Shown here: piece after piece, positions 10,701 through 60,557 of the stretch
How positions within the stretch are numbered: the first letter of the stretch is position 1
Layout of the letters: every line of letters begins with the position of its first letter
Origin: Candidatus Omnitrophota bacterium
GTDB taxonomy: Bacteria; Omnitrophota; Gorgyraeia; Tantalellales; Tantalellaceae
Direction: 5' to 3'
NCBI GenBank assembly: GCA_016783605.1
Contig: JADHWG010000002.1
Coordinates: 107 to 64,106 of the forward strand
DNA length: 64,000 bases
Made by a program: the position numbers and the translations under genes
The notes under the pieces: generated by a model
The model's input: only the letters and a program-made list of their open reading frames with translations
Databases searched by the model: none
Told to the model about the DNA's origin: nothing

Positions 10701-12503
10701 ATGATTTTAGCTTTTTGCAGAATAAATACGATAGAAGATGTATCTTTTCAGGAAAAGCCTGTCGTCAAAAAAATACGGATGGTAAATAACGTACTTTTGG
10801 GTGTTAACATTGGTATGGGTATAATGAAGGCGGCGAGGGGCGGCGGTTTTACCGCCGGAGTATCTCTTTTTTGTATATCAACGCTTTTGCTTGTGATTTC
10901 ACTTTTGATGTTGAAAGAGAAATTTGTGGACGCGCCTTTGGCTGGCAAACTCAACAAGGCTCAAGCTCGACGTTGGAATGCTATCGAATACTCCCGCGTA
11001 AAAACACCGATCAAAGTTCAATTTTGGAAGGTTTTTGAGGGAGCGAAAAAATGGATTCGTTCCGTTAAAAAGCGTTTTGACGTGTTTATTATGACATTAT
11101 TTGGAGTTGTGTTGAGTGCGGCTATTGCCAGTGCTAAATCTGGAGAAACTTTTGCTGAAGCATGGACATTCGCGGAAATAATAGTAGGAATTATTGGAGG
11201 ATTCGCTATAGCGGGAACGTTTCTTATATTGTTGGCTGTAAATTACATTATTAGACGCAACTATGAGGAAAGAGTAAAAGAAACTGAATTTAAAGTTGCG
11301 CTTGGATTGTCGGAGAAAATGTATGCGGACATCGTTAGAAATGGTCATAAGAATTTATTGAAAGAAATAACAAGCGATGTTGAAATAATACATCTTGAAG
11401 AAAGCGTTAGCCGGGAAGTCATGCAGGAAGAATTTAATGAAAAGACGAGGGGTCGAAGAGTTGTAGGTGCGATCGTGGATCCGACCGTGCTTGAAGTAAT
11501 TAACGGCATTGATGGAAACGACAATTCGCATAGCAGAAATCTTGATAAAAGTATGCGAATAATAGAAGATTTCATCAAAACCGCGAAAAAAGAGATCACG
11601 CCCCTTATGGCGCCGAAAGCCGGGTTTTTTAAACTGAAAGGGCTCACACAAAAGGCGATCAAGGAAGATTTTGATAAATTAGAAAAATTAACTAAAAAGA
11701 AAACAAAAGAGTGGGATGGCAAAATACAAGTGTTAGTCAGAACTTTGCCAGCGGAGAGTCTCCAGCTTGTGGATAAAGGTGCGTATCATGTTCCGGTGAA
11801 TAAGTGGCATAGAGCGGTTGTTGGGGAAAATAGAGTGAGTATAGACGCGAAACGTTTAGCTAAGGGAGGAGGAGGTCTAATTGTAGGTTCTAATCGCAAA
11901 TACATAAGTGTGTCAGCGTATGATCTCGCGGATTTGAGGTTTATCGCGAACGCGATCAAAGATTTAGGTGTTGATAAAGAAAAAGCGTCTCAGTTTATTC
12001 ACGTGAGACTGCGCAACAATAACGTGCGGACACGGGAAGATCTGCAAAAGTATATGGAAAAAACCGGACTAAGCGGATATCTTTATCCGAAAAATGTGGA
12101 TATTGTTTCCGAGCAGGAAGAAAAAGATATGACGCTTGAGAAAATTCTTTTTAAGGTGAAACATATGTTCTCCGGAGCGATGATTTCTGTTAGCAATGAT
12201 CAAATTTTTGTCGGCAATACGAGAGACTTGAATCTTTCTTCTGCGGATAAAATTACGCTAAGCCGCGAAAAAGCGCCAAAATTCGTTCAGATGAGAGGAG
12301 AGGGAATTGTCTCTCAGCTTCTTCTCGCTCTGGTTGAGTTTAGCGCCCGGGAAAAAATACCGGCGAGTTTGGGAAAAATAACGCTTGATCCGAATAAAAC
12401 GGGGCTTAAGATATACATATATGTTCCGAAAATAAAAAAAGCGGATTATGACGCGATACTTGACGTTATAAAGAATTATGAGAAGATGATGATGAGTGTT
12501 TAA
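1746..12503 (+). CDS. Giant multi-domain membrane protein, 3585 aa (paralog 1): N-terminal anchor, conserved N-module, two multi-TM clusters, CBM-like beta-sandwich, GH-A-like TIM barrel, PKD domain, acidic T/D-rich repeats, conserved C-module
   Basis: Single uninterrupted track ORF with an AGGAGGG RBS 7 nt upstream. The N-terminus MGNFRGKFYVKAIAAVVAAIFLHQQIAWAQGG is a hydrophobic anchor. Hydrophobic helices are clustered at about nt 4740-8170 and 10510-11270. The PKD signature WDFDDYDG...HTYDEPGVYLVTLTVTDTAGN lies at about 9990-10150. NEP and GE motifs lie in a barrel-like segment at about 8930-9810. The N- and C-terminal 500 and 430 aa are homologous to the ORF at 43636-59250. Confidence 0.85.
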   Translation: MGNFRGKFYVKAIAAVVAAIFLHQQIAWAQGGAAPAAMPPAARVSENVGAGQVGTDVCDIDLPYNLAHRDEVYTGAREEKIIHLQDAHASLSAQYSLVNLLDVLAKNYDLEFIALEGTEGVIDTSLLKSFPDKDIREKTADLLMREGRMSAGEFFQITRDEKNIMLCGVEDNELYKENLDGFCQVIEQREPLVKMVKAFRGQIDALEEKVYSDELRTFIYRGRAHKNGTLNFSDYWREMSPFLEKFGIETGTLRDMPLLTQSIELERKIDFEKANTERGDLISDLTGRLEKDELKALVLESVNFKEQKVSPANFHKYLEELARENNISLSAYKNFSMFTEYISLYESVDIFNLYSEVESLEKTIRGKLYRNEDERELNKISVMTELLRGLYSIELSSRDFGFFEETREKYDAKKFAAFIKDKCAKHKVTIEKGYDLAEMLGGINSAANFYETAAKRDRLMIQNTLKRMKSEKKRVAALITGGYHTKGLTEIMKENKLSYLIISPKFEKDEERPYVAVLTGKKKPYEELLESGKYQIMAAAWNNPNDTPESQISKTEEIVALTRAINDMTQEDWENNGEEWKGSFCPGSSVEIFNEDKFKELIETVEGREIDGAVVTGYKGGEPRVALKLNEKSEIQRVEITEKHKRIWEKRTGNIMLHVNQVFSMTKLKTESDIAESVGNKIDNPTIDTEWQKRNMIIHPALVISEENINNTIDRMRPTVIGVGQDENAEQKRITEEIKRVLKIKGINEAELKDKIVKKFINAAMEELKRRNESNQTPNQDEPFVLTLEKIEKICQSLRDEADSSSVGQNPDDLRKKVERAFMEMGATEAFLKSGAVEKQIQLLMKMIEKKDEKSNPNEANSIFAKLVSKDEAYWNNVEEDIKGYQKEYNTTYVKTSKPSIFEQSELEQTEIDLVRVVKKEEKLGLVDNSLVDFFKKLKDMESDNVSTEAPDQVKTPPAEFEIKDHEIGSRAYPKSTKFVTNEPTQTQEDPIESKDIKKSFMEKIEAQLVRMTFTATIFTALMLIILRGVTHNRAKKEEEYAPLVVQKKESDEKSVDEADAVTVKKDNFIKSIPGKIVKFIKDKANLVIRHKNLIIMMFVSIGSIAAIANAESFGFVQTIERVSSTPLFATSTFGMVELMMVVGAVALTVWVFLSLGKGEIGAERRLPIIEILRKETCKLDIIVAGVFAYQTIIQYMADGAFTKGVFLFAIATAALIFSVWTFIKDGLLVKTAGVENRETKMIEGDLKSGAVVMTVTKKVEDVPVAEVTSRKKLLFVQSKNWLKSKFALAKKYKDLISALFVSSIIGLVSISQAYDGSIGLSPSSIMAMAVLSGCTIGALVFLIRSLDKTKKISDKKNASVEIPKIRNFKELKGYAGISIVTSAMTLLIGYFHKPLWQICLDLPMKHEILGSITVGAGLLTSAVVAGIAIWFTWITLDAAIPMGLKKAGSFVKGIFRFVKTYFSVFIGTVFAGTLWSTVARAVNNSANVVSIFDVTQGTKFSVIIRSIPRNVIVPFAIVMMTVITAVWIFSAIVKAVRLYRAQERGKVSEEEVGEIKKKQNRFNIQVFSNMALILISFFAANNVSLTMEYALVIIPFAILGLCVYSIYSAIHFVCKLVQDYRKPLTEQKKSERKNKKRSSKGEVKISLLTGMVFMFIVLAIGCITPKVNTKSVLDKSVAKTKMAETVGTQKMDDSKKMVPRTETEPKKKEIKICGNTPNVHDAACDVIILNPSYGAVQDEWPDEIYFDYWGDITGYEVEIIFTELGKRENTRIEIFLKNKKYINMSSGAVTPDKDGVVRWNPAAVEGWLFRKSMAKAKAKFIKNNAAISIKFRGMDAEEGEDHIEEIRFVRKEVNKSKGVSRSKLFTWAPIIALTSFITGSGIFNTALAGAAGLGWMNEIEAIAVSSPWGGLSLMCLLFGAMLAGAGAIAYIFTNLLNLFSSEMEGKTLLKVSLIWMVSTGAILGLLAKIGSIAIWVNRFFVGDMLMSSGLTTIGMSTLLIALFGTAMISAGLVMKGTHDVYFQNKKRAEVIFSSLGSAAGSGVLYVLARNWRLIGNALEVLVVGGPANIVFAVVITVGGSIGTVLFAVATLVAISKTWFKLGELSAERKRSGTALFTVIMLIFGIMFCWVPGVGASGEKPEDLPAVKYTEPRTPGNYVEPRVPGIYVEPRTPGTFSAAPDSVTPRTDVGTDEEIIPLTGWYPETYDDSQGIVDVYCGEDGILKIVADMRGQDDYRRQGEVYRNLDEATDFTGKKESFKVRVPEKYALNQENGVVPYMMDVNGNKQYADRVKITRAGEWVTVEMVPMPYGRTRLKGNAGRFKWTDPGFDPSLGITRVGIKFVIDEKSTDTFISENPDGTVKDGYIEVADIRIVPMEGVVHEAEWQNVYRDEPIVVPAVDAGTFVANSGVSLYLKTYERAIGTPDGVTAHYEETLNEFKKLASRGVKKARILLCIGSKNTSGIEFDDNDMPIGFKDFEGEDLSGEELAILDFANLIRIGTETDIEMALVLHNKDITEAHPGVFGDEEKRAALVALDKILLDGAKEMLEEDVWEYFEYGEALNEPDDAGTHSWYTQEFVKAENKMIRDDIGKPVTLGPAKREHIGNWLLSDSEMLKPGDMFQIHVYNDNLDELLAELRRNIGEFEWPEGVTICFGEAQGNIGSDSVISEAFPAAHRSGAKRIYFWRDNRLSPKYTVDEDEYQSTAQYMMSADYDTDVPDEVDDTELPIARAAVSDQTVDEGVEIIFNAGESTDEGGEIETFSWDFDDYDGIQEDAGTVTATHTYDEPGVYLVTLTVTDTAGNSGTDTLTITVNEAVVDDDTDVTNETDVDVTDETDEGVTDETDGDVTDKADDTDTNKDDVDKPGSTLDTSDGGCYIGTAWFNDKSDKSKDMKRENTPGAEVLAREGVGNTLFDKVINWWEGLKTSVKKHFNLVVMIMFGGALFSTIARAGEPGAFGEVTKQLFAVSTFGKVELAVASLSAAVAIVTMILAFCRINTIEDVSFQEKPVVKKIRMVNNVLLGVNIGMGIMKAARGGGFTAGVSLFCISTLLLVISLLMLKEKFVDAPLAGKLNKAQARRWNAIEYSRVKTPIKVQFWKVFEGAKKWIRSVKKRFDVFIMTLFGVVLSAAIASAKSGETFAEAWTFAEIIVGIIGGFAIAGTFLILLAVNYIIRRNYEERVKETEFKVALGLSEKMYADIVRNGHKNLLKEITSDVEIIHLEESVSREVMQEEFNEKTRGRRVVGAIVDPTVLEVINGIDGNDNSHSRNLDKSMRIIEDFIKTAKKEITPLMAPKAGFFKLKGLTQKAIKEDFDKLEKLTKKKTKEWDGKIQVLVRTLPAESLQLVDKGAYHVPVNKWHRAVVGENRVSIDAKRLAKGGGGLIVGSNRKYISVSAYDLADLRFIANAIKDLGVDKEKASQFIHVRLRNNNVRTREDLQKYMEKTGLSGYLYPKNVDIVSEQEEKDMTLEKILFKVKHMFSGAMISVSNDQIFVGNTRDLNLSSADKITLSREKAPKFVQMRGEGIVSQLLLALVEFSAREKIPASLGKITLDPNKTGLKIYIYVPKIKKADYDAILDVIKNYEKMMMSV
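8195..8275 (+). repeat. Three tandem 27-nt coding repeats (EPRxPGxYV) inside giant gene 1
   Basis: Seen in sequence: gtagaaccgcgagtgccggggatctat and gtagaaccgcgaacgccggggact, following ccgagaactccggggaattat. Confidence 0.7.
10190..10330 (+). repeat. Tandem degenerate 27-nt coding repeats (VTDETDxxx) giving an acidic T/D-rich linker after the PKD domain
   Basis: Seen in sequence: gtgacagatgagacggacgaaggt, gtgacggatgagacggacggggat, gtgacagacaaagctgacgat. Confidence 0.7.
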
Positions 12504-12590
12504 TCGTTGGTTCGTTGATCGTTGTTTCGTTGTCTCGTTGATAGTTGTCTCGTTGATTGTTGATCGTTGATGAGTGTTTAATGTTTGGGT
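12503..12590. repeat. TCGTTG-type microsatellite directly after the giant-gene stop, followed by a duplicated copy of the gene's last 20 nt
   Basis: Seen: tcgttggttcgttgatcgttgtttcgttgtctcgttgatagttgtctcgttgattgttgatcgttg, then gatgagtgtttaatg, which repeats gatgagtgtttaatc at 12487-12501. Confidence 0.8.
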
Positions 12591-12753: not shown

Positions 12754-12984
12754 ATGCCTACAAAAAAACCACGAATAAATGTAGTGCTTGAACCAAGATT
12801 GTACAAAATCTTGGTAAGAGTGGCACATGGAGAAGGGATTTCTGTATCTTTGGCGGCAAGAGATTTGATAAAGGATGCTGTTGAACTTTACGAAGATAGG
12901 TACTGGGCAAAAGTCGCTGAGGAAAGAGAGAAAACTTTTTCTGACAAGAAGGCTTTAACCCATAAGGAAGTTTGGGATCAGTGA
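12754..12984 (+). CDS. Ribbon-helix-helix (CopG/RelB-like) antitoxin
   Basis: ATG at 12754 inside track ORF 12634-12984, giving 76 aa. MPTKKPRINVVLEPRLYKILVRVAHGEGISVSLAARDLIKDAV is a typical RHH antitoxin N-terminus. Its stop overlaps the start of the downstream RelE-like gene. Confidence 0.7.
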   Translation: MPTKKPRINVVLEPRLYKILVRVAHGEGISVSLAARDLIKDAVELYEDRYWAKVAEEREKTFSDKKALTHKEVWDQ

Positions 12985-13286
12985 AATACACTGTATTTTA
13001 TCACCAGGATGTAAAACAGAAAGATCTTTCGTCTATCCCGGAAAATTTAAAGCAAAGAATTCGTAGGGCTATAGAAGAAAAATTAATGTTGGATCCTGAA
13101 AACTACGGTACTCCTCTAAGGAAAGGTTTACATGGGTACCGAAAATTGCGAGTAGGAGATTATCGGGTTATTTACAGCATTCGGAAAAGTAGTGCTAAGA
13201 TTAAAATTTTCAAAATTGGACACAGAAAAGAAGTATATAAGAATGCGCATACACGTGTAAAAGAAGTGTCTTACCTAACAAAATGA
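12981..13286 (+). CDS. relE: RelE/ParE-family toxin
   Basis: Track ORF 12972-13286. GTG 12981 overlaps the antitoxin stop as gTGA; TTG 12972 is an alternative start. LRKGLHGYRKLRVGDYRVIYSIRKSSAKIKIFKIGHRKEVY matches the conserved RelE/ParE core (RVGDYRVIY...I..IGHRK). Confidence 0.75.
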   Translation: MKYTVFYHQDVKQKDLSSIPENLKQRIRRAIEEKLMLDPENYGTPLRKGLHGYRKLRVGDYRVIYSIRKSSAKIKIFKIGHRKEVYKNAHTRVKEVSYLTK

Positions 13287-13298
13287 AACTTCATCTCC

Positions 13299-13490
13299 AA
13301 AAATCCCACCTCGTAGGTGGAAAAATTTCACCTACGAGGTGGGATTTTTGGCGCAAGAAGGGACTGTCGCAAAATACCCCAAAATGTCATCCTCGCGAAA
13401 GCGGGGATCTATAAGTCTAAGAAACACTATATGTTACAGATCCCCGCGTTCGCGAGGATGACAGAAAAAGGTATTTTGCGACAGACCCAA
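13299..13490. repeat. Palindromic element family P2, copy 2 (core arms 13385-13410 and 13438-13463), preceded by a CCTCGTAGG hairpin at 13299-13348
   Basis: Seen: ggactgtcgcaaaatacccc...tgtcatcctcgcgaaagcggggatct...agatccccgcgttcgcgaggatgaca...ggtattttgcgacagaccc. Track ORF 13317-13526 is an artefact. Confidence 0.85.
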
Positions 13491-16160: not shown

Positions 16161-16266
16161 CAGCTTTAGTTGCATGTTACAGGTTGCACGTTACACGTTT
16201 TCCCGCCGAAGGCGGGTCCGCCTTCGGCGGAAAACCTGAAACCTGAAACCTGTAACGTGGAACAGC
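16161..16266. repeat. Palindromic element family P3, copy 2. It is a direct-orientation copy of the element at 14498-14606, so the two copies bracket mgtE.
   Basis: Seen: cagctttagttgcatgttacaggttgcacgttacacgttttcccgccgaaggcgggtccgccttcggcggaaaacctgaaacctgaaacctgtaacgtggaacagc. The first 60 nt are nearly identical to 14498-14557. Confidence 0.85.
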
Positions 16267-18890: not shown

Positions 18891-18936
18891 GACGTTTTGA
18901 GTCGGGTCAAATACAACAATCGTATATTGCCCCCGT

Positions 18937-19001
18937 CAAACAACCTCGTAGGTTGAACCTCGTAGGTTGAACCTACGAGGTTCAACCTACGAGGTTGTTT
19001 G
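18937..19001. repeat. Nested double hairpin of the CCTCGTAGG/CCTACGAGG motif family (P1)
   Basis: Seen: caaacaacctcgtaggttgaacctcgtaggttgaacctacgaggttcaacctacgaggttgtttg. The same 9-mer palindrome pair closes hairpins at about 1646, 13299, 14452, 14617, 34268, 35970, 36003, 38561, 39995, 40146, 43382, 60493 and 61968. Confidence 0.85.
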
Positions 19002-19045
19002 GCGGGTTGCTCTCCGATTCCATCTTTTTTAAAATCTGCAATAAC

Positions 19046-20416
19046 ATGATAAGATCTTATAAAGAAACACTTAAGGAGCTTGACTCGTTTACGAACTATG
19101 AGAATATCGGGTTTGGCGATATTAGAGAAGAATTTAATCTTGATAAATTGCGTCAAGTTCTGAAAAAGATCGGTAATCCCGAGCGGAATTACCGTGTTAT
19201 CCATATCGCGGGGACAAAAGGGAAAGGTTCTATTTGTTGTTTTGTCTCTTCCGTTTTAAGAGAAGCCGGGATGAGTACCGGGCTTTTTCTTTCACCGCAC
19301 ATAATCACGCCAAGAGAACGAATTCAAGTAAACGGCGAAATTATCAGCGAAAATGAGTTCGCCGAAATTTTTAATTATTTGATGGAGTATCTTGATCAGC
19401 CGGCAAATGAGAAATATACGTTTTTTGAAATGTATACGATGGTCGCGTTTGAATATTTCAGCCGTAAAAAAGTAGATTTTGCGGTTATTGAAGTTGGTAT
19501 GGGTGGACGGCTTGACGCGACTAACGTGGCGCGCGGAGAATTTTGCGGAATAAGTCCGATAAGTTATGATCATACTCAGGTTTTGGGAAACTCTATTCGC
19601 GCGATCGCCGAGGAAAAATCGGCGATCATTAAACCGGGCGCGTATTGTGTGAGTTCTCCTCAGCGGCCGGACGCGGAGCGTGTTATAAAAAAAAGGTGTT
19701 TGGAAAATAACGCCGAATTGGTTTTAGCCGGTAGAGATCTAAAATATGAGGTCGATAGTGTATCCGAAGGAGGGAGTTTTTTTGATTTCGGCGGTGTCTA
19801 TGAAAGTTATAAAAATGTCAAAACGTCTCTTGCGGGAATTTTTCAAGTTGATAATGCCGTAACGGCTTTAGGAATATGTGAAAAAGTGTTGTCCGGCATG
19901 CCCGGGCTGGGGAATATTTTAAAACGAGGTATAAAAAACGCGTATATTCCCGGCAGGATGGAAGTTTTGTGTAAAAAACCGTATTTTGTGGCGGATGGGG
20001 CGCAAAACGCGGATAGTGCCGCCAATTTAAAAAAATCTGTTGAACAGATCTTTAAATATGATAAGTTGATACTCCTATTGGGGATGAGTCGAGACAAGGA
20101 TATTGAGGGTGTTTGCCGGCTTTTGGGACCATTTGCCGAAAAAATAGTGTTAACGCGCGCTTTGAGCGCGCGAGCGGCGGACCCCGGCGTGATAAGAGGC
20201 CATATCGAAAATAAACAGGTTAAAGTTACCGCCAATGTGACAGACGGTGTGAAAGAGGCGTTTAATCTCGCCGGCAAAAATGATATGATACTTGCAGCCG
20301 GTTCTTTTTTTGTTGTCGCCCAGGCGCGATGTATTGTGAAGGGGAGTTTTGCATATAGTTTGGGGCTGTCGCAAAATACCCACCCATGTCATCCTCGCGA
20401 ACGCGGGGATCTATAA
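19046..20416 (+). CDS. folC: Folylpolyglutamate synthase / dihydrofolate synthase FolC
   Basis: Track ORF 18995-20416. Internal ATG 19046 is preferred because the upstream TTG lies inside a repeat hairpin. It has the Mur-ligase P-loop HIAGTKGKGS. The last 12 codons and the stop are supplied by the P2 repeat element at 20366-20465. Confidence 0.85.
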   Translation: MIRSYKETLKELDSFTNYENIGFGDIREEFNLDKLRQVLKKIGNPERNYRVIHIAGTKGKGSICCFVSSVLREAGMSTGLFLSPHIITPRERIQVNGEIISENEFAEIFNYLMEYLDQPANEKYTFFEMYTMVAFEYFSRKKVDFAVIEVGMGGRLDATNVARGEFCGISPISYDHTQVLGNSIRAIAEEKSAIIKPGAYCVSSPQRPDAERVIKKRCLENNAELVLAGRDLKYEVDSVSEGGSFFDFGGVYESYKNVKTSLAGIFQVDNAVTALGICEKVLSGMPGLGNILKRGIKNAYIPGRMEVLCKKPYFVADGAQNADSAANLKKSVEQIFKYDKLILLLGMSRDKDIEGVCRLLGPFAEKIVLTRALSARAADPGVIRGHIENKQVKVTANVTDGVKEAFNLAGKNDMILAAGSFFVVAQARCIVKGSFAYSLGLSQNTHPCHPRERGDL

Positions 20417-20465
20417 GCCTAAGAAACACAATATGTTATAGATCCCCGCGTTCGCGAGGATGACA
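20366..20465. repeat. Palindromic element family P2, copy 3 (core arms 20387-20412 and 20440-20465)
   Basis: Seen: gctgtcgcaaaatacccaccc atgtcatcctcgcgaacgcggggatct ... agatccccgcgttcgcgaggatgaca. Confidence 0.85.
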
Positions 20466-20492
20466 GAAAGTGGAATGGAGTTTTCGCTATAT

Positions 20493-20563
20493 ATCACAGG
20501 TTACAGGTTTTAGAATTTTGTGTGTTTAGCGTGCAACCTGCAACTTGTAACTTGTAACCTGAT
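20493..20563. repeat. P3-family arm repeats without the central core (caggttacaggtt ... aacctgcaacttgtaacttgtaacctg)
   Basis: Seen in sequence. The arms resemble the P3 copies at 14498 and 40031. Confidence 0.6.
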
Positions 20564-20592
20564 CTGGTGCAATGAAAATGGTGGGTGTTGTT

Positions 20593-21975
20593 ATGAATAA
20601 TGATACTATAGCGGCGATATCTACCCCGGAGGGTGCCGGAGGCATAAGCATAGTACGCTTAAGCGGGAAAGACGCGCTGAAGATCGCGGACAGGGTTTTT
20701 TCGTCTTCCGGCGGGAAAGCGCCATCGACATATAAGAGCCATACGGTACGGCACGGCTATGTAAACGCGCCGGATACGAAAGAGGCGATCGACGAAGTTA
20801 TTTTAACCGTTATGCTCTCTCCCAAAACTTACACGCGTGAAGATATCGTTGAAATTAATTGTCACGGTGGAATGGTATTTTCTAAAAAAGTGCTTGAAGT
20901 GTGTCTTGTGGAAGGCGCGCGGCTTGCCGCGCCGGGAGAATTTACGAGGAGAGCTTTTCTGAACGGAAGAATAGATCTGTCTCAGGCAGAAGCGGTGATG
21001 GATGCAATAAAGTCGGAAACGGATCTGGCCGGTAAAGTTGCCGCCAGGCATCTTACCGGTGAATTTTCAAAGAGCCTGCGGAATTTTAGAGACGCGATAA
21101 TCGAGATATTATCGATGGTGGAGCTTGCCATAGATTTTTCGGAAGAAGATGTGGCTTTTGCGCGCAAAGAGGAAATAGCGAAACGTCTTAGTGAGGTGAG
21201 AGATTCGATCTTGAACTTGATTCGGACGGCGGACGCGGGGATGATCCTTTCTTCGGGCGCCAGTATTGTTATCTCAGGCAGACCGAATGTCGGTAAGTCC
21301 AGTTTAATGAACGCTCTTTTACGAAAAAACCGTGTTATTGTCGCGCCGACTTCCGGAACTACCAGAGACATTATCGAAGAGAGCGCGAATATCGGCGGAG
21401 TAAAGGTTTCGTTGGCGGATACCGCCGGAATAATAGATACGGAAGACAAAATAGAAAAAGAAGGTGTAAAAAGGTCTTTTGAAAAATTGGAACTTTCCGA
21501 TATCGTGATATTCATGATGGACTATAGCCGGAAGTTATCTCCGAGAGACGAGAAAATATATAGGAAGATCAAACACAAAAATGTGATAATTGTGGTCAAT
21601 AAAACGGATCTTGCTAAGAAGCTGGATATGGGTGAAACTGAAAGAATGTTCGCGCCGGAAAAAGTTTTAAAGCTGTCCATTTTAAAGAAAAAAGGGTTTA
21701 ATGCTGTGGAAAACGCGATCAAGCAAAAGCTGTTCGGCGGAAAAATAAAATTTCCCGAAGAATGCGTGGTGACGAATCTTCGGCACAAAAAAATATTGGA
21801 GAAAACGCTGAAAGCGGTAGAACGCGCGAGGAAAGTAACGAACGGTGAATACAACGAAGAACTTCTCGCGAGCGATTTGAACGAAGCTGTCTACGAGTTA
21901 GGTTTGATCACGGGAGAAACCGCGACAAGCGAAGTGCTAGACAAAATTTTCTCCCGGTTTTGTATTGGTAAGTGA
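20593..21975 (+). CDS. mnmE: tRNA modification GTPase MnmE (TrmE)
   Basis: Track ORF 20572-21975. ATG 20593 is preferred (MNNDTIAAISTP). It has the GRPNVGKSS G1 motif, DTAG and NKTD motifs, and the canonical C-terminal FCIGK. Confidence 0.9.
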   Translation: MNNDTIAAISTPEGAGGISIVRLSGKDALKIADRVFSSSGGKAPSTYKSHTVRHGYVNAPDTKEAIDEVILTVMLSPKTYTREDIVEINCHGGMVFSKKVLEVCLVEGARLAAPGEFTRRAFLNGRIDLSQAEAVMDAIKSETDLAGKVAARHLTGEFSKSLRNFRDAIIEILSMVELAIDFSEEDVAFARKEEIAKRLSEVRDSILNLIRTADAGMILSSGASIVISGRPNVGKSSLMNALLRKNRVIVAPTSGTTRDIIEESANIGGVKVSLADTAGIIDTEDKIEKEGVKRSFEKLELSDIVIFMMDYSRKLSPRDEKIYRKIKHKNVIIVVNKTDLAKKLDMGETERMFAPEKVLKLSILKKKGFNAVENAIKQKLFGGKIKFPEECVVTNLRHKKILEKTLKAVERARKVTNGEYNEELLASDLNEAVYELGLITGETATSEVLDKIFSRFCIGK

Positions 21976-22029: not shown

Positions 22030-22400
22030 TCATCCCCGCGAAAGCGGGGATCCAGTACTGAGCAACCTCGCAGTGTAAGTTTAATTCCACCCACGAGGTT
22101 ATAACGATTGTGACCTGTTTTTGTTAGTTGGTTTTCGCTATTTTTATATTATAGATTCCCGCCTTCGCGAGAATGACAATATGATGCGCGGGAATGACAC
22201 TCCACCTCATTGTCATCCCCGCGCAAGCGGGGATCTAGAACCGAGCAACCTCGCAGTTTGATTTTACTCCACCCCACGAGGTTGAAATGATAGTGTTACG
22301 TTTTTGTTAGTTGGTTTTTGTTATTTTCATATTATAGATTCCCGCGTGCGCGGGAATGACAATAATGGTGTGCGGGAATTACAATTCACACCGTGGAAAT
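22030..22400. repeat. Two tandem copies of a 180-nt unit (22030-22209 and 22210-22390), each with a ccccgcg-aaa-gcgggg stem-loop and a cccgcNNNgcggg palindrome
   Basis: Seen in sequence. tcatccccgcgaaagcggggatccagtactgagcaacctcgcagtgtaagtttaattccacccacgaggtt...attcccgccttcgcgagaatgacaat is repeated with about 85% identity. Confidence 0.85.
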
Positions 22401-22489: not shown

Positions 22490-23053
22490 ATGGATAAGAA
22501 AAAAATAGAAAAAGCCGTAAAGGATATATTGGAAGCGGTTGGAGATAATCCTGAAAGAGAAGGGCTTAAAAACACACCTAAGCGAGTTGCCCAAATGTAT
22601 GAAGAGATATTTGGGGGAATGGACAGGAATCCCGACGATGATCTTGAGGTGTTTTTTGAGAAAGAGCATGATGAAATAATTTTGCTCAAGGGAATCCCTT
22701 TATATTCCATTTGCGAACATCATATGGTTCCGTTTGTAGGTAAAGCGCATGTCGCGTATATTCCCGGCGATAACAAGATCACGGGTTTGAGTAAAATTGC
22801 CAGGGTTGTCGATACATTGTCCAGAAGACTTCAGGTGCAGGAACGGCTTACGACTGAAATAGCGGAAGTTCTTATGCGTAAGCTGACCCCTCGCGGAGTG
22901 CTTGTGGTGGTTGAAGCGGAGCATCTTTGTATGAGTATGAGGGGCGTGAAAAAACCCGGAATCATGACTATGACAAGTGCGGTAAGGGGCGTGTTCCGAA
23001 CAAGTCAAAAGACCCGTTCAGAGGCGTTGTCTCTTATCAGACACCGCGGATAG
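22490..23053 (+). CDS. folE: GTP cyclohydrolase I FolE
   Basis: 187 aa with a GAGGAAGAGGAGG RBS. It has the conserved [10 protein letters not shown] and [14 protein letters not shown] motifs. Confidence 0.95.
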
Positions 23054-23055
23054 TT

Positions 23056-23084
23056 CCCCAAAACAACCTAGGGTTGTTTTGGGG
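23056..23084 (+). terminator. Terminator-like hairpin ccccaaaacaaccctagggttgttttgggg after folE
   Basis: Seen in sequence: a 12-bp stem with a T-rich 3' side, 3 nt after the folE stop. Confidence 0.5.
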
Positions 23085-23232
23085 CGTATATCGTATGTCG
23101 CATATCGTATATCGAAGAACAGTATGTCGTATGTCGCATATGGTATGTCGTGAAGAACTTTTTCCGCCGAAGGCGGACCCGCCTCCGGCGGGGATTTTCT
23201 TGCGATATACGATATGCGACATACGACATACG
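23085..23232. repeat. Palindromic element family P3, copy 3 (tatgtcg-type arms, core ccgccgaaggcggacccgcctccggcgg)
   Basis: Seen in sequence. Its reverse complement recurs at 24808-24950. Track ORFs 22927-23247, 23037-23240 and 23068-23268 are artefacts. Confidence 0.85.
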
Positions 23233-23351
23233 AAAATCAACCTGTAAGGTTGATTTTTTGGGGTGCATATAATATAATTATACGCAATATCGGTGTCGGG
23301 TCGTAGCCGAAAAGAGTTGTTAAAAACCAGAGGATATTAAAAGGGATTAAT

Positions 23352-23813
23352 ATGGCTAAATATGGGGTTTTATGGCAATTGGTGCATAACAAGGTTGTCG
23401 TGGCTACTTTTATGGGGTGGTTTACGGCTCAGATAATCAAGGTTATTAGCGGAGTGGTAAGAGAGAGGCGGTTTAATTTTAAATGGTTTGTCGGAACCGG
23501 AGGCATGCCGAGTTCTCATGCCGCGGGTGTGGCGGCGCTAACGACAAGTGTTGGTATGTACGAAGGTGTGAGTACGGCGCTTTTCGGAGTGACGCTTCTT
23601 TTTTGTGTTATCGTGATATGTGACGCGCAGGGAGTCCGGCGCGCGTCCGGGAAACAGGCCGAGATCTTAAATACGATAATGGACGACATATATTGGAAAA
23701 AAAAGATACAGGAAGAAAAACTTAAGGAACTTTTAGGGCATACTCCTATCCAAGTGTGGGCGGGAATATTGATAGGGATCGGTGTTGCCGGTGGACTGTA
23801 TTTCATAAAATAG
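23352..23813 (+). CDS. DUF212 / divergent PAP2-like membrane protein (YuiD family)
   Basis: 153 aa. GGMPSSHAAGVAALTTSVG and CDAQGVRR are characteristic of the acid-phosphatase/vanadium-haloperoxidase-related DUF212 family. It has several TM helices. Confidence 0.7.
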   Translation: MAKYGVLWQLVHNKVVVATFMGWFTAQIIKVISGVVRERRFNFKWFVGTGGMPSSHAAGVAALTTSVGMYEGVSTALFGVTLLFCVIVICDAQGVRRASGKQAEILNTIMDDIYWKKKIQEEKLKELLGHTPIQVWAGILIGIGVAGGLYFIK

Positions 23814-23882
23814 GGCACGTAAGTCTCCCGATTTTTTTTGTTCAAGGGGAGAAGCCATCGAATACTGAAAAGGACAAATTTT

Positions 23883-24806
23883 GTGAAGAAAATAATTTGG
23901 GTAGGGATAGTTATTACGGTGTTTATTATTACCGGAGTGTCGTTTATCGTTATGAAGCGTGTTGATTCCGGAGGGGAGTGTTTTATCAGCCAGGACAAGG
24001 CCGCGCTCATATATCAGAGGGCGGAGGAGTTTATTGAAAACGAAGAATATATCGAGGCGGAAAACGCTTTGTTTACGATCGCTACCGAATATCCGGACTC
24101 TTTTTACGCGGGTAAATCTCTCAGGAAAGTTGCCGAATTTTATATTGAAAACAACGACTATAAATCCGCGCGGGACATATACAAACGTCTTCTTCTCGAT
24201 TTTCCCGGATTTCAAGCCGCGGCCGAGATCCGTTCCGACATCGAAAAGTTGAATATGAGAATTATGTTTTCGCCTACGATAGCGGAAAACAGTGTCGAAT
24301 ATGAAATTCAATCCGGAGACACTCTTTACAGTATCTCAAAAAAATTTAATACCACGGTTGAACTTTTAAAAAAGGCGAATGAGCTTCAAGGCAATTTAAT
24401 ACGTCCCGGTCAACATATCAAGATAATCTTATTGGAATTTTCAATTTTTGTGGATAAATCATCAAACACTCTCACCCTTAACGGTGACGAAGATATTATC
24501 AAGACATATAGCGTTTCAACCGGAAAAGATAACAGTACCCCTGTGGGTACGTTTGAAATTGAAGAAAAAATGGTAAAACCCCTTTGGTACAAAGTTGGCT
24601 CGGTCGTATCGGCCGATAGCGAAGAATATGAGCTCGGAACAAGATGGATGGGACTTTCTGTTGAGGGATATGGAATACATGGAACTTCGGATGAAAACAG
24701 TATTGGAAAACAGGTTACGCAAGGTTGTGTTCGAATGTACAACGATGATATTATTGAACTCTATACGGTTATCCCGAGCGGAACAAAAGTGGTTATAGTA
24801 GATTAA
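23883..24806 (+). CDS. LysM-domain L,D-transpeptidase (YkuD family)
   Basis: Track ORF 23838-24806. GTG 23883 with an AAAGGA RBS is preferred. It has an N-terminal TM anchor, a TPR-like segment and a LysM domain (YEIQSGDTLYSISKKFNTTVELLKKANEL). The YkuD catalytic motif is HGTSDENSIGKQVTQGCVRM. Confidence 0.8.
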   Translation: MKKIIWVGIVITVFIITGVSFIVMKRVDSGGECFISQDKAALIYQRAEEFIENEEYIEAENALFTIATEYPDSFYAGKSLRKVAEFYIENNDYKSARDIYKRLLLDFPGFQAAAEIRSDIEKLNMRIMFSPTIAENSVEYEIQSGDTLYSISKKFNTTVELLKKANELQGNLIRPGQHIKIILLEFSIFVDKSSNTLTLNGDEDIIKTYSVSTGKDNSTPVGTFEIEEKMVKPLWYKVGSVVSADSEEYELGTRWMGLSVEGYGIHGTSDENSIGKQVTQGCVRMYNDDIIELYTVIPSGTKVVIVD

Positions 24807-24807
24807 T

Positions 24808-24950
24808 CGCATGTCGTATGTCGCATATCGTATATCGCAAGAAAATCCCCGCCGGAGGCGGGTCCGCCTTCGGCGGAAAAAGTTCTTCACGACATACCAT
24901 ATACGACATACTGTTCTTCGATATACGATATGCGACATACGACATACGAT
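24808..24950. repeat. Palindromic element family P3, copy 4. It is the reverse complement of copy 3, so the pair flanks the DUF212/L,D-transpeptidase cassette as inverted repeats.
   Basis: Seen: cgcatgtcgtatgtcgcatatcgtatatcgcaagaaaatccccgccggaggcgggtccgccttcggcggaaaaagttcttcacgacataccatatacgacatactgttcttcgatatacgatatgcgacatacgacatacgat equals the reverse complement of 23085-23232 with a few mismatches. Confidence 0.85.
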
Positions 24951-24971
24951 AAAAAAGGTGAGACAAAAAAT

Positions 24972-25934
24972 ATGGCGATAATGCTTGAATTTGAAAAACC
25001 CATAGTGGAACTGGAAAACAAGATCGAAGAGCTTAAAAAGTTTACAAAAGATGAGCAGATCGATTTTTCCAAAGAGATAGAGCGTTTAACGGCGCGGCTT
25101 GAAACGCTTCGAAAGGAAATTTTCAGCAACCTTACGTCTTGGCAAAAAGTTCAGATCGCGCGTCATCCCGATCGTCCTTACACGATGGATTATATCAACA
25201 TGATCACGGAAGATTTTATTGAAATACACGGCGATCGGCATTTCGCCGATGACAGGGCGCTTGTGGGCGGTCTGGTCAAACTTGCCGGACAAAAAATGGT
25301 GGTTTTGGGACATCAAAAAGGCCGGGATATGGCTGAAAATATGGAAAAGAATTTTGGATGCGCTCATCCCGAAGGATATCGTAAAGCCATGCGTATTATG
25401 AGGATGGCGGAAAAATATAATTTGCCCATAATTACGTTCATTGACACTCCCGGGGCGTATCCCGGAATAGGAGCTGAAGAACGCGGGCAGGCGGAAGCGA
25501 TCGCTCATAACCTTAGAGAAATGTTTGCCCTTAAGGTGCCGATCATTGTGTTTGTGATAGGGGAAGGTGGGTCCGGCGGGGCTTTAGGCATAGGGATAGG
25601 CGATAGGATATTTGTTTTGGAAAACGCGTATTATTCGGTGATTTCGCCTGAAGGATGTGCCGCGATTCTTTGGAGAGAGAGAGCAAAAGCTCCTTCCGCG
25701 GCGGAAGCGTTAAAACTTACGGCGCCGGAACTTTTGAAACTAGGAATAATTGATGGAATAATTCCGGAACCTTTGGGCGCGGCGCACAGGGAGCCTCAAA
25801 AAACGGCTGAAGAAATAAAGCGCGCGGCGATAAAGAGTCTTAATGAACTTTTTGCTCTTTCTCCGGAAGAGCTTTTGTCAAAACGGTATGAAAAATATAG
25901 AAATATCGGTGTTTACAACGAAGGACACGTATAA
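24972..25934 (+). CDS. accA: Acetyl-CoA carboxylase carboxyltransferase subunit alpha AccA
   Basis: Track ORF 24930-25934. ATG 24972 with an AAGGTGAG RBS is preferred because the 5' part of the track ORF lies in a repeat. It has the [24 protein letters not shown]-terminus, and [10 protein letters not shown] and GEGGSGGAL motifs. Confidence 0.95.
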
Positions 25935-25935
25935 A

Positions 25936-26343
25936 ATGGTAAAAAACGTAATTCCGACCAATAGCCGTCTCTTGAAAAAAATAAGCAAAAAACTGATCAA
26001 GCTTTTAAAAAAAGCGGAAATTGATGAAGAAATTATTTTTGATATTCACGTGAGTTTGGAAGAGGCTCTTCGAAACGCGATGATGCACGGGAATAAATTG
26101 GATATCAGAAAAAAAATTATGGTCGAGGCGGAACTCGAGCCGAGCATTATGAAAATAGCCGTAGAAGACGAAGGAGGAGGGTTTAATCCGTCAAAACTTC
26201 CCGATCCGACGCATAGCGAAAATCTTCTTAAAGAAAACGGAAGAGGCATATATTTGATGAGGCATCTTATGGATGAAGTGAAGTTTGAAAATTCGGGCCG
26301 CAGAGTTACAATGACAAAGTATCTCGGCACAAAACAATTATAG
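25936..26343 (+). CDS. Anti-sigma regulatory factor-type Ser/Thr kinase (RsbW/SpoIIAB-like GHKL ATPase)
   Basis: ATG 25936 lies 1 nt after the accA stop. The track ORF 25843-26343 extends artefactually upstream. GHKL motifs are EEALRNAMMHGN (N box), EDEGGGF (G1) and ENGRGIYLMRHL (G2). Confidence 0.8.
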   Translation: MVKNVIPTNSRLLKKISKKLIKLLKKAEIDEEIIFDIHVSLEEALRNAMMHGNKLDIRKKIMVEAELEPSIMKIAVEDEGGGFNPSKLPDPTHSENLLKENGRGIYLMRHLMDEVKFENSGRRVTMTKYLGTKQL

Positions 26344-33147: not shown

Positions 33148-33645
33148 ATGGTTAAATATTCCGTAAGTATAACTTGGAGCGAAGAGGATGAGGGATTTAT
33201 TGCGATAGTTCCTGAGCTTAACGGCTTATCTGCTTTTGGTAAAACGTACAAAGAAGCTTCTGAAGAAATTGAAGTTGCTATTGAGAATTTTTTAAAAACA
33301 CTGAAGGATGAAAAAATTCCTATTCCAAAGCCTAAAAAACTTGAAGAATATAGCGGTCAAACAAGACTTAGGATGCCGAAAAAATTACATAGAATTTTGA
33401 CTAGTGACGCGTCAAATGAAGGAGTGTCTCTAAACGCGTATATGGTTTTTCTTCTGACGATGCATGCAAATGTTCATCGCCAGATAAAAGATTCATTGTG
33501 GCTTGACAAAATATTCCCCGATTTTACTAGCGAAAGCAGTGAGTCATTTCAAGAAGAATTTGGTGATTCTCAGGCAACGCCAGTTAGCGATGATCAAGAA
33601 AATTATGTTGATATGATGAAACCAAAGGAGAAAGTGACATGGTAA
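33148..33645 (+). CDS. hicB: HicB-family antitoxin (RNase H-like fold plus C-terminal RHH/HTH region)
   Basis: 165 aa starting 3 nt after hicA. YSVSITWSEEDEGFIAIVPELNGLSAFGKTYKEASEEIEVAIENFL is a typical HicB N-domain. Confidence 0.8.
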   Translation: MVKYSVSITWSEEDEGFIAIVPELNGLSAFGKTYKEASEEIEVAIENFLKTLKDEKIPIPKPKKLEEYSGQTRLRMPKKLHRILTSDASNEGVSLNAYMVFLLTMHANVHRQIKDSLWLDKIFPDFTSESSESFQEEFGDSQATPVSDDQENYVDMMKPKEKVTW

Positions 33646-34040
33646 AAAATATAAGGAATATTTTGTGTTTAAGTATCATAACTTCAAAAGAAACAAATAC
33701 GGTTAGCTACATAAACAGTATAGAAGAGCTTGGCGTGCCAAAACTTCCAATGAATCTACCTTCATTTCAATTAGGAACTTTATGGCAAAAGAGTAAGGCT
33801 GGAGATGTCGCCCTAAAAATGCGAATCAAATTAAAAAATCCTTCAGGAAAAATCGAACAAACATTTGATATCCCTGAAATTAATATAAAAACCAAACGGT
33901 ACAGGTATAATCTGAGTTTTGGGGGATTACTGGTAAAAGAAGAAGGAACGTATGTTTTTATTGTTGAATTTTTAGGAAAAAATAAGTGGGAAATTGCTTC
34001 AGAAGTTCCGTTGGAAATACGAATTTTAAAAAACAAATAA
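33639..34040 (+). CDS. Hypothetical protein (133 aa) translationally coupled to hicB
   Basis: Its ATG overlaps the hicB stop by 7 nt. It has no recognisable motif and is predicted beta-rich. Confidence 0.4.
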   Translation: MVKNIRNILCLSIITSKETNTVSYINSIEELGVPKLPMNLPSFQLGTLWQKSKAGDVALKMRIKLKNPSGKIEQTFDIPEINIKTKRYRYNLSFGGLLVKEEGTYVFIVEFLGKNKWEIASEVPLEIRILKNK

Positions 34041-38572: not shown

Positions 38573-38677
38573 GGGCACATTGCATGTGCCCGTAATTGAT
38601 TTTTATGAGTTACGATGCGTTTTTTACCATTCCGATTTCGTTCGGGCACATGCAATGTGCCCCTACGAGGTTGTTAA
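38561..38677. repeat. Compound hairpin with outer P1 arms (aacaacctcgtagg ... cctacgaggttgtt) enclosing two GGGCACATGCAATGTGCCC-type palindromes (38573-38591 and 38644-38663)
   Basis: Seen in sequence immediately after the leuS stop. Confidence 0.85.
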
Positions 38678-40030: not shown

Positions 40031-40140
40031 AAGTTTCATGTTTCATGTTACACGTCGCACGTTTTCCCGCCGGAGGCGGGTTCCTCCTTCGGCGGAAACG
40101 CTGTAACCTGTGACCTGTGACTTGTGACTTGTACCTTGAA
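40031..40140. repeat. Palindromic element family P3, copy 5 (core ccgccggaggcgggttcctccttcggcgg, arms catgtttcatgttaca / ctgtaacctgtgacctgtgacttgtgacttgta)
   Basis: Seen in sequence between comEA and comEC, flanked on both sides by ctgttccacctacgaggtggaat hairpins. Confidence 0.85.
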
Positions 40141-59471: not shown

Positions 59472-60506
59472 ATGAATATTATGGAATTGAGGAAAGAGAT
59501 CGAAAAAATTAGAAAAAATAGGGCAGATTTCATTAATGTTTCAAATTTGGAATGGTATTCCCTTTTTAAAGATGAAATTCGAAATTCTATAGCAATAGAG
59601 GGAGTTTTCGCGAATAGAAACGATCTTTTAGATGTTCTGGAAAGGAACAAAAGAACTGATAGTGAAAAAACCGCTTCAATTTTAGGTTATTTTGAATCTG
59701 CAAGTTCAATGTATGAGTATGCGCACAATCAACATAAAGAAAAAGAGTTTGTTTTAAAAGTGTCGGATGTAAAACAAATCCATACACTTCTCATGAGGTA
59801 TGAAAAAGACATGGGGATATATCTTGGTGATCTGGGAGAATACAGAAAAACCAACGTGGAAGTTGCAAGCGCTACTTTTAAGCCTATAGACGTTTATTAT
59901 GTGGCCACAGCAATGAATCTTCTCGTAAAGTGGGTAAATTCTAAAATTGCCGACAAAGAATTTGATCCGGTGACCTTAGTAACCATTTCACATATCTGGT
60001 TTGAAACCGTTCACCCTTTTAGGGACGGGAACGGAAGAGTAGGGCGAATATTGTTGTCGTATCTTTTAGTTGGCGCGGGCTTTGTAAATATCGCAATTAA
60101 AGGTGTAGCAAAAAGTGATAGGGAGATATATTATAATGCTCTTGAAGCATGTGACGATTGTTTTGAGCGTATGCATCGAGATTTAGAGAAAAAAAAGAAA
60201 ATCGTTACAAAAGACGTTGACAGATACATGAAAGATGTTGATTTCGATCCGCTATCAAAAATCATTGTTAAACGTTTGGAAGACAGTGTAAAGCGGTTAC
60301 GGACTATATCGAAAGATAAGTTGAAAGGTGATGCTGTTCTTTCTTTGCGTGAGTTAGCGGAAACATACAACTATTCGCAGAACTATTTGAGGAATTTGAT
60401 AAATAGAGGGCAACTAAAGGCACACAAAGAGGGTAAGTTATGGTATGTACGAGTCCGGGATATGCAAAAATACATGGAATCAATTGCAAAAAAATCAACC
60501 TTGTAG
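59472..60506 (+). CDS. fic: Fic-family protein (Fido domain AMPylase/Doc-like) with C-terminal HTH
   Basis: 344 aa. It has the canonical Fic motif HPFRDGNGRVGR and a C-terminal excisionase/MerR-like HTH (LRELAETYNYSQNYLRNLINRGQLKAHKEGKLWYV). Confidence 0.85.
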   Translation: MNIMELRKEIEKIRKNRADFINVSNLEWYSLFKDEIRNSIAIEGVFANRNDLLDVLERNKRTDSEKTASILGYFESASSMYEYAHNQHKEKEFVLKVSDVKQIHTLLMRYEKDMGIYLGDLGEYRKTNVEVASATFKPIDVYYVATAMNLLVKWVNSKIADKEFDPVTLVTISHIWFETVHPFRDGNGRVGRILLSYLLVGAGFVNIAIKGVAKSDREIYYNALEACDDCFERMHRDLEKKKKIVTKDVDRYMKDVDFDPLSKIIVKRLEDSVKRLRTISKDKLKGDAVLSLRELAETYNYSQNYLRNLINRGQLKAHKEGKLWYVRVRDMQKYMESIAKKSTL

Positions 60507-60557
60507 GTGGAATGACACTTGGTGGAATCTGCGGGTTCCAAGAAGATTCTAAGGTTT

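Follow-up and report, generated by a model that had tools for sequence, protein, structure and literature searches.

Two inverted copies of a palindromic element around DUF212 and ldt

A 64,000-nt stretch of contig JADHWG010000002.1 (positions 107 to 64,106 of the forward strand; NCBI GenBank assembly GCA_016783605.1) from a Candidatus Omnitrophota bacterium, hereafter called the window, contains two copies of a palindromic element (P3) in inverted orientation. Between the copies lie DUF212, encoding a divergent PAP2 family protein, and ldt, encoding a TPR-LysM-YkuD L,D-transpeptidase; folE is located upstream of the left copy and accA downstream of the right copy (Table 1). The genes and the repeats had been pointed out earlier from the letters of the sequence, and that report (the original prediction) interpreted the arrangement as a substrate for inversion, phase variation or cassette mobilization or, alternatively, as a pair of bidirectional terminators. 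Pfam upheld the identities of folE, DUF212, ldt and accA. Moreover, the geometry was much as described: inverted repeats of about 145 bp around a 1.57-kb two-gene segment were measured as 149 nt and 142 nt, with a spacing of 1573 nt from the left to the right copy.

Global alignment indicated that positions 23085-23233 are the reverse complement of positions 24807-24948. The copies differ by one 7-nt heptamer indel (ATGTCGC) and two substitutions and are 98% identical apart from the indel. A repeat search detected two pairs of inverted arms, one of 105 nt with 98% identity (23129-23233 and 24807-24911) and one of 60 nt with 90% identity (23085-23144 and 24889-24948). The match between the copies took in the extra asymmetric arm, which is made up of AAGAACA and a second heptamer array, and identity broke off sharply at either end of the element. 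The copies are full-length reverse complements, asymmetric arm included, as had been proposed, with boundaries shifted by 1-2 nt. A 24-nt arm motif had seven matches in the window, all of them inside the left and right copies, and the 28-nt core of the element had four; shuffles predicted 0.00 in either case. Copies with CGYATRT heptamer arms number two only in 64 kb and lie 1.6 kb apart.

Each copy is itself an imperfect palindrome, with arms of 30-35 nt that are 94-97% complementary. The repeat search indicated that both array 1 and array 2 of the left copy are able to pair with the complementary array on the other side of the core, and the core, CCGCCGAAGGCGGACCCGCCTCCGGCGG, comprises a pair of 13-nt hairpins; whichever strand is read, one of the pair gives c(UNCG)g. 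Folding gave -82.9 kcal/mol (+ strand) and -81.3 kcal/mol (- strand) for the left copy, with z scores of about -10.5 to -11 relative to shuffled controls, and -75.3 and -83.6 kcal/mol for the right copy, with z scores of about -11.5. Open reading frames (ORFs) within both copies were spurious overlapping ones only, and we conclude that the copies are non-coding.

The right copy fills the space exactly from the ldt stop codon TAA (24804-24806) to the conserved accA ribosome-binding region (AAGGTGAG). An accA ORF that opens at the ATG at 24930 would begin within the right element, and the accA start is for that reason likely to be the one at 24972. The Pfam ACCA match begins at residue 19 of the longer ORF, accA is called as 320 aa in the public contig L001, and the start context is kept in the related contigs L010, L011 and L012 (see below). 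In L012, accA has been called 44 codons too long (364 aa) through that contig's own element; repeats in the ldt-accA spacer mislead start-codon calling. The start of ldt is GTG, as in gene calls of public assemblies (L001).

A promoter scan identified a sigma-70-type promoter (10/12 matches) upstream of DUF212 and inside the segment. L011 and L012 retain the promoter block, ttgattttttggNgtgNatataatataatt, and L014 has a more diverged version (tttgatttttgtttatatatataatataatt). The -35 box is held in the 3' arm of a small AACCT-type hairpin that abuts the left copy. The second small hairpin in the folE-DUF212 spacer, ccccaaaacaacctagggttgttttgggg, belongs to a family with further members elsewhere in the window.

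Table 1. Positions of the elements, hairpins, promoter and genes in the window
Feature	Position	Strand or reading	Remarks
Left copy	23085..23233	.	149 nt; between folE and DUF212
Left copy, heptamer array 1 (CGYATRT)	23085-23114	+ reading	
Left copy, AAGAACA	between array 1 and array 2	+ reading	
Left copy, heptamer array 2	23122-23150	+ reading	
Left copy, TGAAGAACTTTTT	between array 2 and core	+ reading	
Left copy, 28-nt core CCGCCGAAGGCGGACCCGCCTCCGGCGG	23164-23191		GC-rich palindrome
Left copy, GGATTTTCTTG	between core and complementary array	+ reading	
Left copy, complementary heptamer array	23203-23233	+ reading	
Right copy	24807..24948	.	142 nt; one heptamer fewer than left; core 24849-24876
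folE, GTP cyclohydrolase I	22490..23053	+	Pfam PF01227, E = 9.6e-77; upstream flank
DUF212 (divergent PAP2 family)	23352..23813	+	Pfam PF02681, E = 4.5e-46; first enclosed gene
ldt, TPR-LysM-YkuD L,D-transpeptidase	23883..24806	+	Pfam YkuD and LysM; second enclosed gene
accA, acetyl-CoA carboxylase carboxyltransferase alpha	24972..25934	+	Pfam ACCA; downstream flank; likely start
Sigma-70-type promoter TTGATT-17-TATAAT	23250..23278	+	Upstream of DUF212
Small AACCT-type hairpin ccccaaaacaacctagggttgttttgggg	23056..23084	.	Between folE stop and left copy; read from sequence
Small AACCT-type hairpin (aaaatcaacct-gta-aggttgatttt)	23233..23257	.	Abuts left copy
mnmE	20572-21975	+	
Sister element	16169..16263	.	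Same core, GTTRCAN heptamer arms; downstream of mgtE
Sister element	40031..40136	.	Core variant, GTNNCAN heptamer arms; between comEA-like and comEC
Further palindromic families, sites	583-661, 13360-13488, 20387-20465, 1426-1525, 38560-38675, 18932-19006, 14449-14714		

Gene order, spacer occupancy and the repeat family

Ldt homologues bear the name L,D-transpeptidase, Candidatus Omnitrophota, and gene order was compared with that on contigs of relatives carrying such homologues at 90%, 81%, 79% and 62% identity. L012/L013 and L014 (NCBI GCA_043812935.1) share the string purH-folC-mnmE-folE-DUF212-ldt-accA-HATPase-STAS-mlaE, L011 holds the same string from DUF212 onward (DUF212-ldt-accA-...-mlaE), and the closest relative, L010, has the same gene context as far as its contig extends. 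L014 has neither element, its folE-DUF212 spacer being 142 nt and its ldt-accA spacer 38 nt long. L011 has an empty ldt-accA spacer of 18 nt and no P3-type element upstream of DUF212. In L012/L013, the folE-DUF212 spacer is without an element and a related element is present at ldt|accA in the same orientation as in the window. The ldt|accA spacer is found in three different states among relatives, L010 (see below) included, and the left copy was not found in those with a readable folE-DUF212 spacer. The ldt-accA spacer of relatives is only 18-38 nt, and accA is probably co-transcribed with ldt in them. We conclude that DUF212 and ldt belong to an old, stable gene order and that the repeats are later additions to its spacers.

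One way in which near-identical inverted repeats could come to enclose both genes is if a composite transposon ends in the two copies and carries DUF212 and ldt about as a cassette. However, the ancestral order is retained in relatives whose Ldt is 62-81% identical and which lack one or both repeats, as folE-DUF212-ldt-accA is kept in L012/L013, which has no left copy, and in L014, which has neither. Moreover, all Ldt homologues examined share one context, and the right copy is lodged between a stop codon and the next gene's ribosome-binding site within that same string. Neither a recombinase nor a transposase turned up among the window's screened ORFs, a set that leaves aside two giant ORFs, and the screened ORFs of L001 likewise had no transposase domain; within the window set, the earlier statement that no recombinase is nearby holds. 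Since the gene order is kept in relatives without one or both repeats, we conclude that DUF212-ldt is almost certainly not a mobile cassette, and the mobilization put forward in the original prediction is abandoned. Conserved order in relatives that lack the repeats is also one half of what the original prediction had named as counting against itself, the other half being a single orientation of the segment.

Comparison of L011 and L012 bears on how the right-hand spacer was filled. The flanking DNA of the two is 91-93% identical, and L012 carries 126-133 extra nt, the element, at ldt|accA. The filled site in L012 reads gatagtTGATTAA-element-CGATTAAaagagg, with TGATTAA on one side and CGATTAA on the other, and the empty site in L011 reads gatagtCGAATAAaagggg, with CGAATAA. 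A direct repeat of 4-7 nt brackets the L012 element and the empty site has a single copy, an arrangement that resembles, and is consistent with rather than proof of, a target-site duplication. The mlaE-ABC spacer is a second region of presence and absence between L011 and L012 and is uninformative on target duplications.

An nhmmer profile made from a 7-sequence alignment identified full-length family members, at 84-116 bits, in the window (two copies), L012/L013, L056, L073 (two copies), L027, L198 and L144. L027, L056 and L073 are contigs of a metagenome-assembled genome (MAG) labelled Planctomycetia, and L144 and L198 come from one Joint Genome Institute (JGI) metagenome; the family is thereby represented in at least four genomes or metagenomes besides the window's own. 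Family members sit in unrelated gene contexts and are 73-86% identical in pairwise comparisons, versus 98% for the window pair. The two copies in L073 (3472-3592 and 5140-5265), both of the subfamily seen in the window pair, are inverted and enclose ilvN-ilvC within an ilvB-ilvN-ilvC-leuA operon at a spacing of about 1.57 kb, and such pairs therefore arise without any special cassette.

Two further observations concern heptamer arrays elsewhere. L073 carries a third heptamer element, with different arms, at 1819-1915. Arrays of (CGTATRT)n were present in at least 120 JGI metagenome contigs (L122-L241; e.g., L135, L138, L147, L154, L156 and L169), often directly 3' of tRNA genes or joined with GCCAGAA / TCAGGAG arrays, and tblastn placed none of the JGI arm-motif contigs, among the matches listed, at the orthologous locus.

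We conclude that the pair probably represents copies of a dispersed palindromic repeat, of a kind resembling transposable elements of the miniature inverted-repeat type (MITEs) and repetitive extragenic palindromic (REP) sequences, within a conserved gene string and that the inverted layout is incidental. Both sequences would be oppositely oriented copies of one subfamily, here called CGYATRT-arm, of the non-coding palindromic repeats that appear to fill intergenic spacers in this Candidatus Omnitrophota genome. The common plan of the elements would be a long imperfect hairpin with tandem-heptamer arms, an AAGAA/TTCTT segment and a 28-nt GC-rich double-hairpin core. Copies may have inserted into the spacers of the ancestral gene string, and the left copy may be a recent local copy of the right one because the two are 98% identical, lie within 1.6 kb and the left copy is absent from relatives with a readable spacer. 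The inverted arrangement around DUF212-ldt would then be due to chance, orientation being a coin toss. By analogy with REP and Correia elements, any function would likely lie in the transcript, as a hairpin inside an operon or at its end, where it could act as an mRNA 3'-end, stability or processing element. For annotation, the repeats should be treated as intergenic palindromic elements and the accA start put at 24972.

Several observations weigh against that interpretation. The left copy has no flanking direct repeat, and neither do several other family members. Target duplication at the right site is unproven because the element's own palindrome runs on into the repeat there (TTAA up to (Y)GATTAA). 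The L012 copy at the same site is 84.6% identical to the window copy, compared with 81-84% for copies from the unrelated MAG, and occupancy of ldt|accA may reflect either orthology or recurrent insertion at a hot spot, which are not separable. L010, the closest relative, bears an unrelated heptamer palindrome at ldt|accA; this palindrome is about 230 nt long (L010:1480-1710), has GGNNCAN / CCCTGAA-CCTTGAT heptamers and is without the GC core. Neither a transposase nor a parent insertion sequence was found in the screened ORFs of the window and L001, and family copy number was counted within 64 kb rather than genome-wide. Covariation among seven members amounted to 1 compensatory pair of 37, most pairs being invariant, and is uninformative for RNA function; the sole clear compensatory change is in the core of L012 (CCTCC...GGAGG). 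Finally, contig L003, described below, shows that the inverted junction may really exist.

The alternative that each copy is a bidirectional terminator was examined from the position of T-tracts. A terminator-like pattern of CCCGCCTCCGGCGGG with GATTTTCTTG was confined to one strand of each copy, + in the left and - in the right, and the other side of the core bears AAAAAG rather than a T-tract. As hairpin and T-tract coincide on a single strand per copy, neither copy is a bidirectional terminator, contrary to what had been suggested. Terminators selected for orientation were not supported either: relative to flanking genes, four of the nine full-length members are sense and five antisense. 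Moreover, no known RNA family accounts for the elements, as Rfam returned two tRNAs only in the whole window at the gathering threshold and, in a permissive scan of 22900-25100, only a chance microRNA match (E = 0.05).

Compatible with dispersed repeats in an incidental layout is the further idea that the two hairpins were exapted, the left copy as a folE terminator and the right copy as an ldt-accA mRNA stabilizer or RNase III site, and that their orientations were selected. The pattern in the left copy faces + strand transcripts, the right copy is non-terminating for the + strand, and the L012 element at ldt|accA has the same non-terminating orientation. Stability is extreme on both strands, and we read the sequence as placing the two variable positions of the core where c(UNCG)g tetraloops have their N. 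Transcripts of Correia elements are cleaved by RNase III at their hairpins (PMC10969869), and effects of REP sequences on mRNA are documented (PMC3733652). The near-even division of sense and antisense members argues against selection, however, as does the sense copy in L144 that lies directly before a downstream ribosome-binding site. Furthermore, the T-tract, at 4 T, is both short and interrupted, hardly any covariation was seen, and relatives manage without either element. We consider selected roles of this kind unlikely.

Inversion of the enclosed segment

An exact look-up of the DUF212 protein in public assemblies returned four places. L001, a 15-kb contig with coverage 7.8, is colinear with the window, and L002, which begins 66 nt downstream of the left copy, is colinear from 23299 onward. 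Four other contigs (L004, L005, L006 and L008) end inside the repeats. In L003 (ENA ERZ24794679, NODE_360121, 2457 nt, k-mer coverage 3.9), 25941..24807 in reverse complement is fused to 23085..24555 via one hybrid element. This is exactly the predicted inverted junction, and outside the element the contig is 100% identical to the window. Three-way alignment indicated that the hybrid element follows the right copy as far as the heptamer indel and the left copy at the inner substitution, placing the exchange within 92 identical bases. Whether L003 represents a real inversion or an assembly chimera is not distinguishable. The reciprocal junction (folE-element-reverse ldt) was not found in exact look-ups of FolE, Ldt and AccA, in which the orientation of three long contigs was not displayed.

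As a by-product of the repeats, the 142-nt inverted homology could permit rare inversion by RecA-type recombination or by template switching during replication, and the 1.57-kb segment would then be found inverted in some populations. Consistent with such a passive polymorphism, L003 carries the junction, its hybrid pattern is as expected of a crossover inside the repeat, and inversion bounded by Correia elements has been reported (PMC10969869). However, the junction is known from a single contig with a k-mer coverage of 3.9, and 92 identical bases collapse in a de Bruijn graph, such that an identical contig would result from loss of junction k-mers at roughly 4x coverage. The reciprocal junction was not recovered, whereas the reference junctions were seen in the window, L001 and L002, and the inverted form would part the essential gene accA from the DUF212 promoter. 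A passive inversion polymorphism is therefore doubtful in our judgment. The original claim that the repeats are a substrate for inversion stands insofar as long inverted repeats suit homologous inversion in principle and an inverted junction exists in L003, and falls short insofar as the junction comes from one low-coverage contig.

The repeats could also bound an inverton, in which a site-specific recombinase flips the segment and so switches the envelope genes by programmed phase variation. Like fimS and hin, the locus has inverted repeats around a promoter-bearing segment, and one contig with the inverted junction exists. Those systems have repeats of about 10-40 nt, against about 145 nt here. 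Also unlike them, inversion at this locus would carry entire genes along with their promoter, the repeats are members of a dispersed family present in unrelated contexts, including an ilv-leu operon, and the window's screened ORFs yielded no recombinase. Relatives, moreover, keep the same arrangement without the repeats. The segment would take the DUF212 promoter along if it inverted, so that DUF212 and ldt would not be switched; inversion would be expected to cut accA off from that promoter rather than toggle expression. Phase variation, as raised in the original prediction, is very improbable.

The result for this locus is deflationary: the two envelope genes are very probably neither a mobile nor a phase-variable cassette. 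The repeats matter for assembly: short-read assemblies break or are wrongly joined where 142 nt of inverted identity recur within 1.6 kb, as in the contig ends of L002, L004-L006 and L008 and in the inverted join of L003. Apparent inversions in Omnitrophota MAGs need read-level checking.

The 28-nt core across phyla and likeness to known repeats

The core is not confined to the CGYATRT-arm pair, as two sister elements in the window combine the core or a variant of it with other heptamer arms (Table 1). A scan for the core pattern, CCGCCGRAGGCGGRYCCGCCTYCGGCGG, in one genome per GTDB (Genome Taxonomy Database) species identified it in at least 107 stretches (L015-L121; e.g., L052:3200, L088:6950, L108:2023 and L113:547), compared with about 1e-4 expected by chance by our arithmetic. 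The labels of core-bearing genomes include Saccharibacteria, Kaiserbacteria, Doudnabacteria and other Patescibacteria/candidate phyla radiation (CPR), Omnitrophota, Planctomycetia, Elusimicrobia, Verrucomicrobiota, Dehalococcoidia and others, with those beyond Patescibacteria and Omnitrophota resting on MAG binning. Flanks with a 7-nt period were found at 10 of 107 core sites among the matches listed, versus 0.3% of random 45-mers, and the heptamers vary by site. No core was found in viral contigs, and there is thus no sign of a phage vector.

Among the matches listed, 56 of 109 core instances lie inside long ORFs, nearly always in the frame that encodes (F)SAGGGSASGG(K). Inspection of alignments indicated that a GroEL and an F1-ATPase alpha subunit have the core peptide as an extra 10-11 residues that their best-matching solved structures lack. 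Further conserved genes with the core include RluD-like and P-type ATPase genes and others, and in-frame cores frequently fall in essential genes of CPR bacteria. In L108 versus L113, and in L039, L051 and L095, seemingly orthologous in-frame cores have the identical 28-mer despite strongly diverged flanks, which could reflect conservation, gene conversion or repeated insertion. A sequencing or linker artefact was considered, as the core has GGATCC and encodes a Gly/Ser linker, and was rejected; the core comes from many projects and technologies and occurs at in-frame and heptamer-flanked sites.

The core has the hallmarks of a very small palindrome that is mobile or actively homogenized. We tentatively entertain, as a quite possible account, that the elements are composites built around a self-propagating 28-nt palindrome (36 nt with its T4/A4 flanks) shared across phyla and that the window pair arose by recent local copying. 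In Omnitrophota and some other lineages, the core would be centred in hairpins with locus-specific tandem-heptamer arms, and the heptamer arrays could be by-products of insertion or replication, e.g., repeated 7-bp duplications or slippage. If true, the core would represent an undescribed class of very small mobile DNA. Full-text literature searches for the core sequence, its peptide and palindromic repeats of Omnitrophota or CPR returned nothing relevant. An architecture of variable heptamer arms and a cross-phylum 28-nt core, tolerated in essential genes, appears to be undescribed in the literature searched, and it offers a handle on the spread of very small palindromes in uncultivated bacteria with small genomes.

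Among known systems, the elements most resemble Correia-type MITEs and REP sequences or bacterial interspersed mosaic elements (BIMEs). As in MITEs, which measure about 50-500 bp, they are small and non-coding (149 nt and 142 nt), have terminal inverted repeats and occur in multiple dispersed copies; no parent transposase with matching ends was seen in the screened ORFs of the window and L001. Like the Correia repeat enclosed elements (CREE) of Neisseria, which are about 100-200 bp and non-coding, they have long terminal inverted repeats that form long hairpins once transcribed, are scattered over intergenic spacers, frequently separating co-transcribed genes, are present in some and missing from other close relatives, with a short direct repeat at the flanks, and cluster with and nest in other repeats. 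Unlike Correia elements, the arms here are tandem heptamer arrays of variable unit number whose sequence differs by subfamily, and the centre is a separate 28-nt palindrome common to several phyla. Also unlike Correia elements, neither a parent insertion sequence nor a transposase was found (window and L001), and the left copy has no target duplication.

The likeness to REP sequences concerns both the core and its placement. REPs are found downstream of genes between co-directional ORFs, in opposite-orientation pairs, as presumed RNA hairpins and sometimes within genes (PMC3733652). All four core-bearing elements of the window lie just after a + strand gene and between co-directional genes, and the 28-nt core is a GC-rich imperfect palindrome of REP size (20-40 bp). 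In contrast, the whole element (142-149 nt) is about five times the length of a REP owing to the heptamer arms, and the core is flanked by T-runs and A-runs or GGATTTT rather than by the GTAG or CGTC tag that stands unpaired at one end of REPs (PMC3733652). Furthermore, most REP families are restricted to a species or genus, whereas the core here has one and the same sequence in several phyla. The REP-associated Y1 transposase, RAYT, was not seen among the screened ORFs of the window.

Heptamer arrays and in-frame palindromes each have precedents of their own. Heptanucleotide short tandemly repeated repetitive (STRR) sequences of cyanobacteria were reportedly described by Mazel and coworkers in 1990, and small dispersed repeats (SDR) are said to have been described by Elhai and coworkers in 2008. 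As here, those systems comprise tandem heptamers in intergenic DNA and hairpin repeats of 21-27 nt that are nested in larger repeats and shared between species. They occur in another phylum and have other sequences, whereas the arrays here are complementary arms of one hairpin around a small palindrome. An excess of heptameric repeats has been noted in bacteria (PMC4692102). Rickettsia palindromic elements (RPEs) are inserted in frame in conserved protein genes and tolerated as an extra peptide (PMC10969869), and the core alone resembles them in being a palindromic repeat in frame inside conserved genes. Unlike RPEs, which are about 150 bp and restricted to Rickettsia, the core adds 10-11 residues (SAGGGSASGG) and is found in several phyla.

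Other hairpin repeats are frequent around the locus. The 515-nt mnmE-folE spacer contains, at 22030-22383, a tandem duplication of a 183-nt composite with small palindromes (TCATCCCCGCGAAAGCGGGGAT, CCACCCACGAGGTT and TTCCCGC..GCGGGAATGACA), and at least three further intergenic palindromic families are present in the window (TGTCATCCTCGCGAANGCGGGGATCT; GGGCACATTGCATGTGCCC / AAGGGCACGGCATGCCGTGCCCTT; AACCTCGTAGGTT / CCACCTACGAGGTGG; sites in Table 1). Intergenic space here is largely nested hairpin repeats. Heptamer-type repeats without the GC core were also seen, one an array of about nine (A/T)TCGTTG units at 12503-12569, directly after the stop of a 3585-aa ORF, and the other a small ACAGGTT / AACCTGC palindrome at 20490-20561, upstream of mnmE.

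The remaining content of the window includes the two giant ORFs, both on the + strand (1746-12503, 3585 aa; 43636-59250, 5204 aa), and genes of toxin-antitoxin type (12972-13286, the 33148-34040 region and 59472-61387), namely ParE, HicA/HicB (from L001 gene calls), Fic with a helix-turn-helix and a HepT/nucleotidyltransferase pair on the - strand. Nearly all genes over 1-64000 lie on the + strand and GC skew is positive in all 2-kb bins but one, which is consistent with the leading strand of one replichore.

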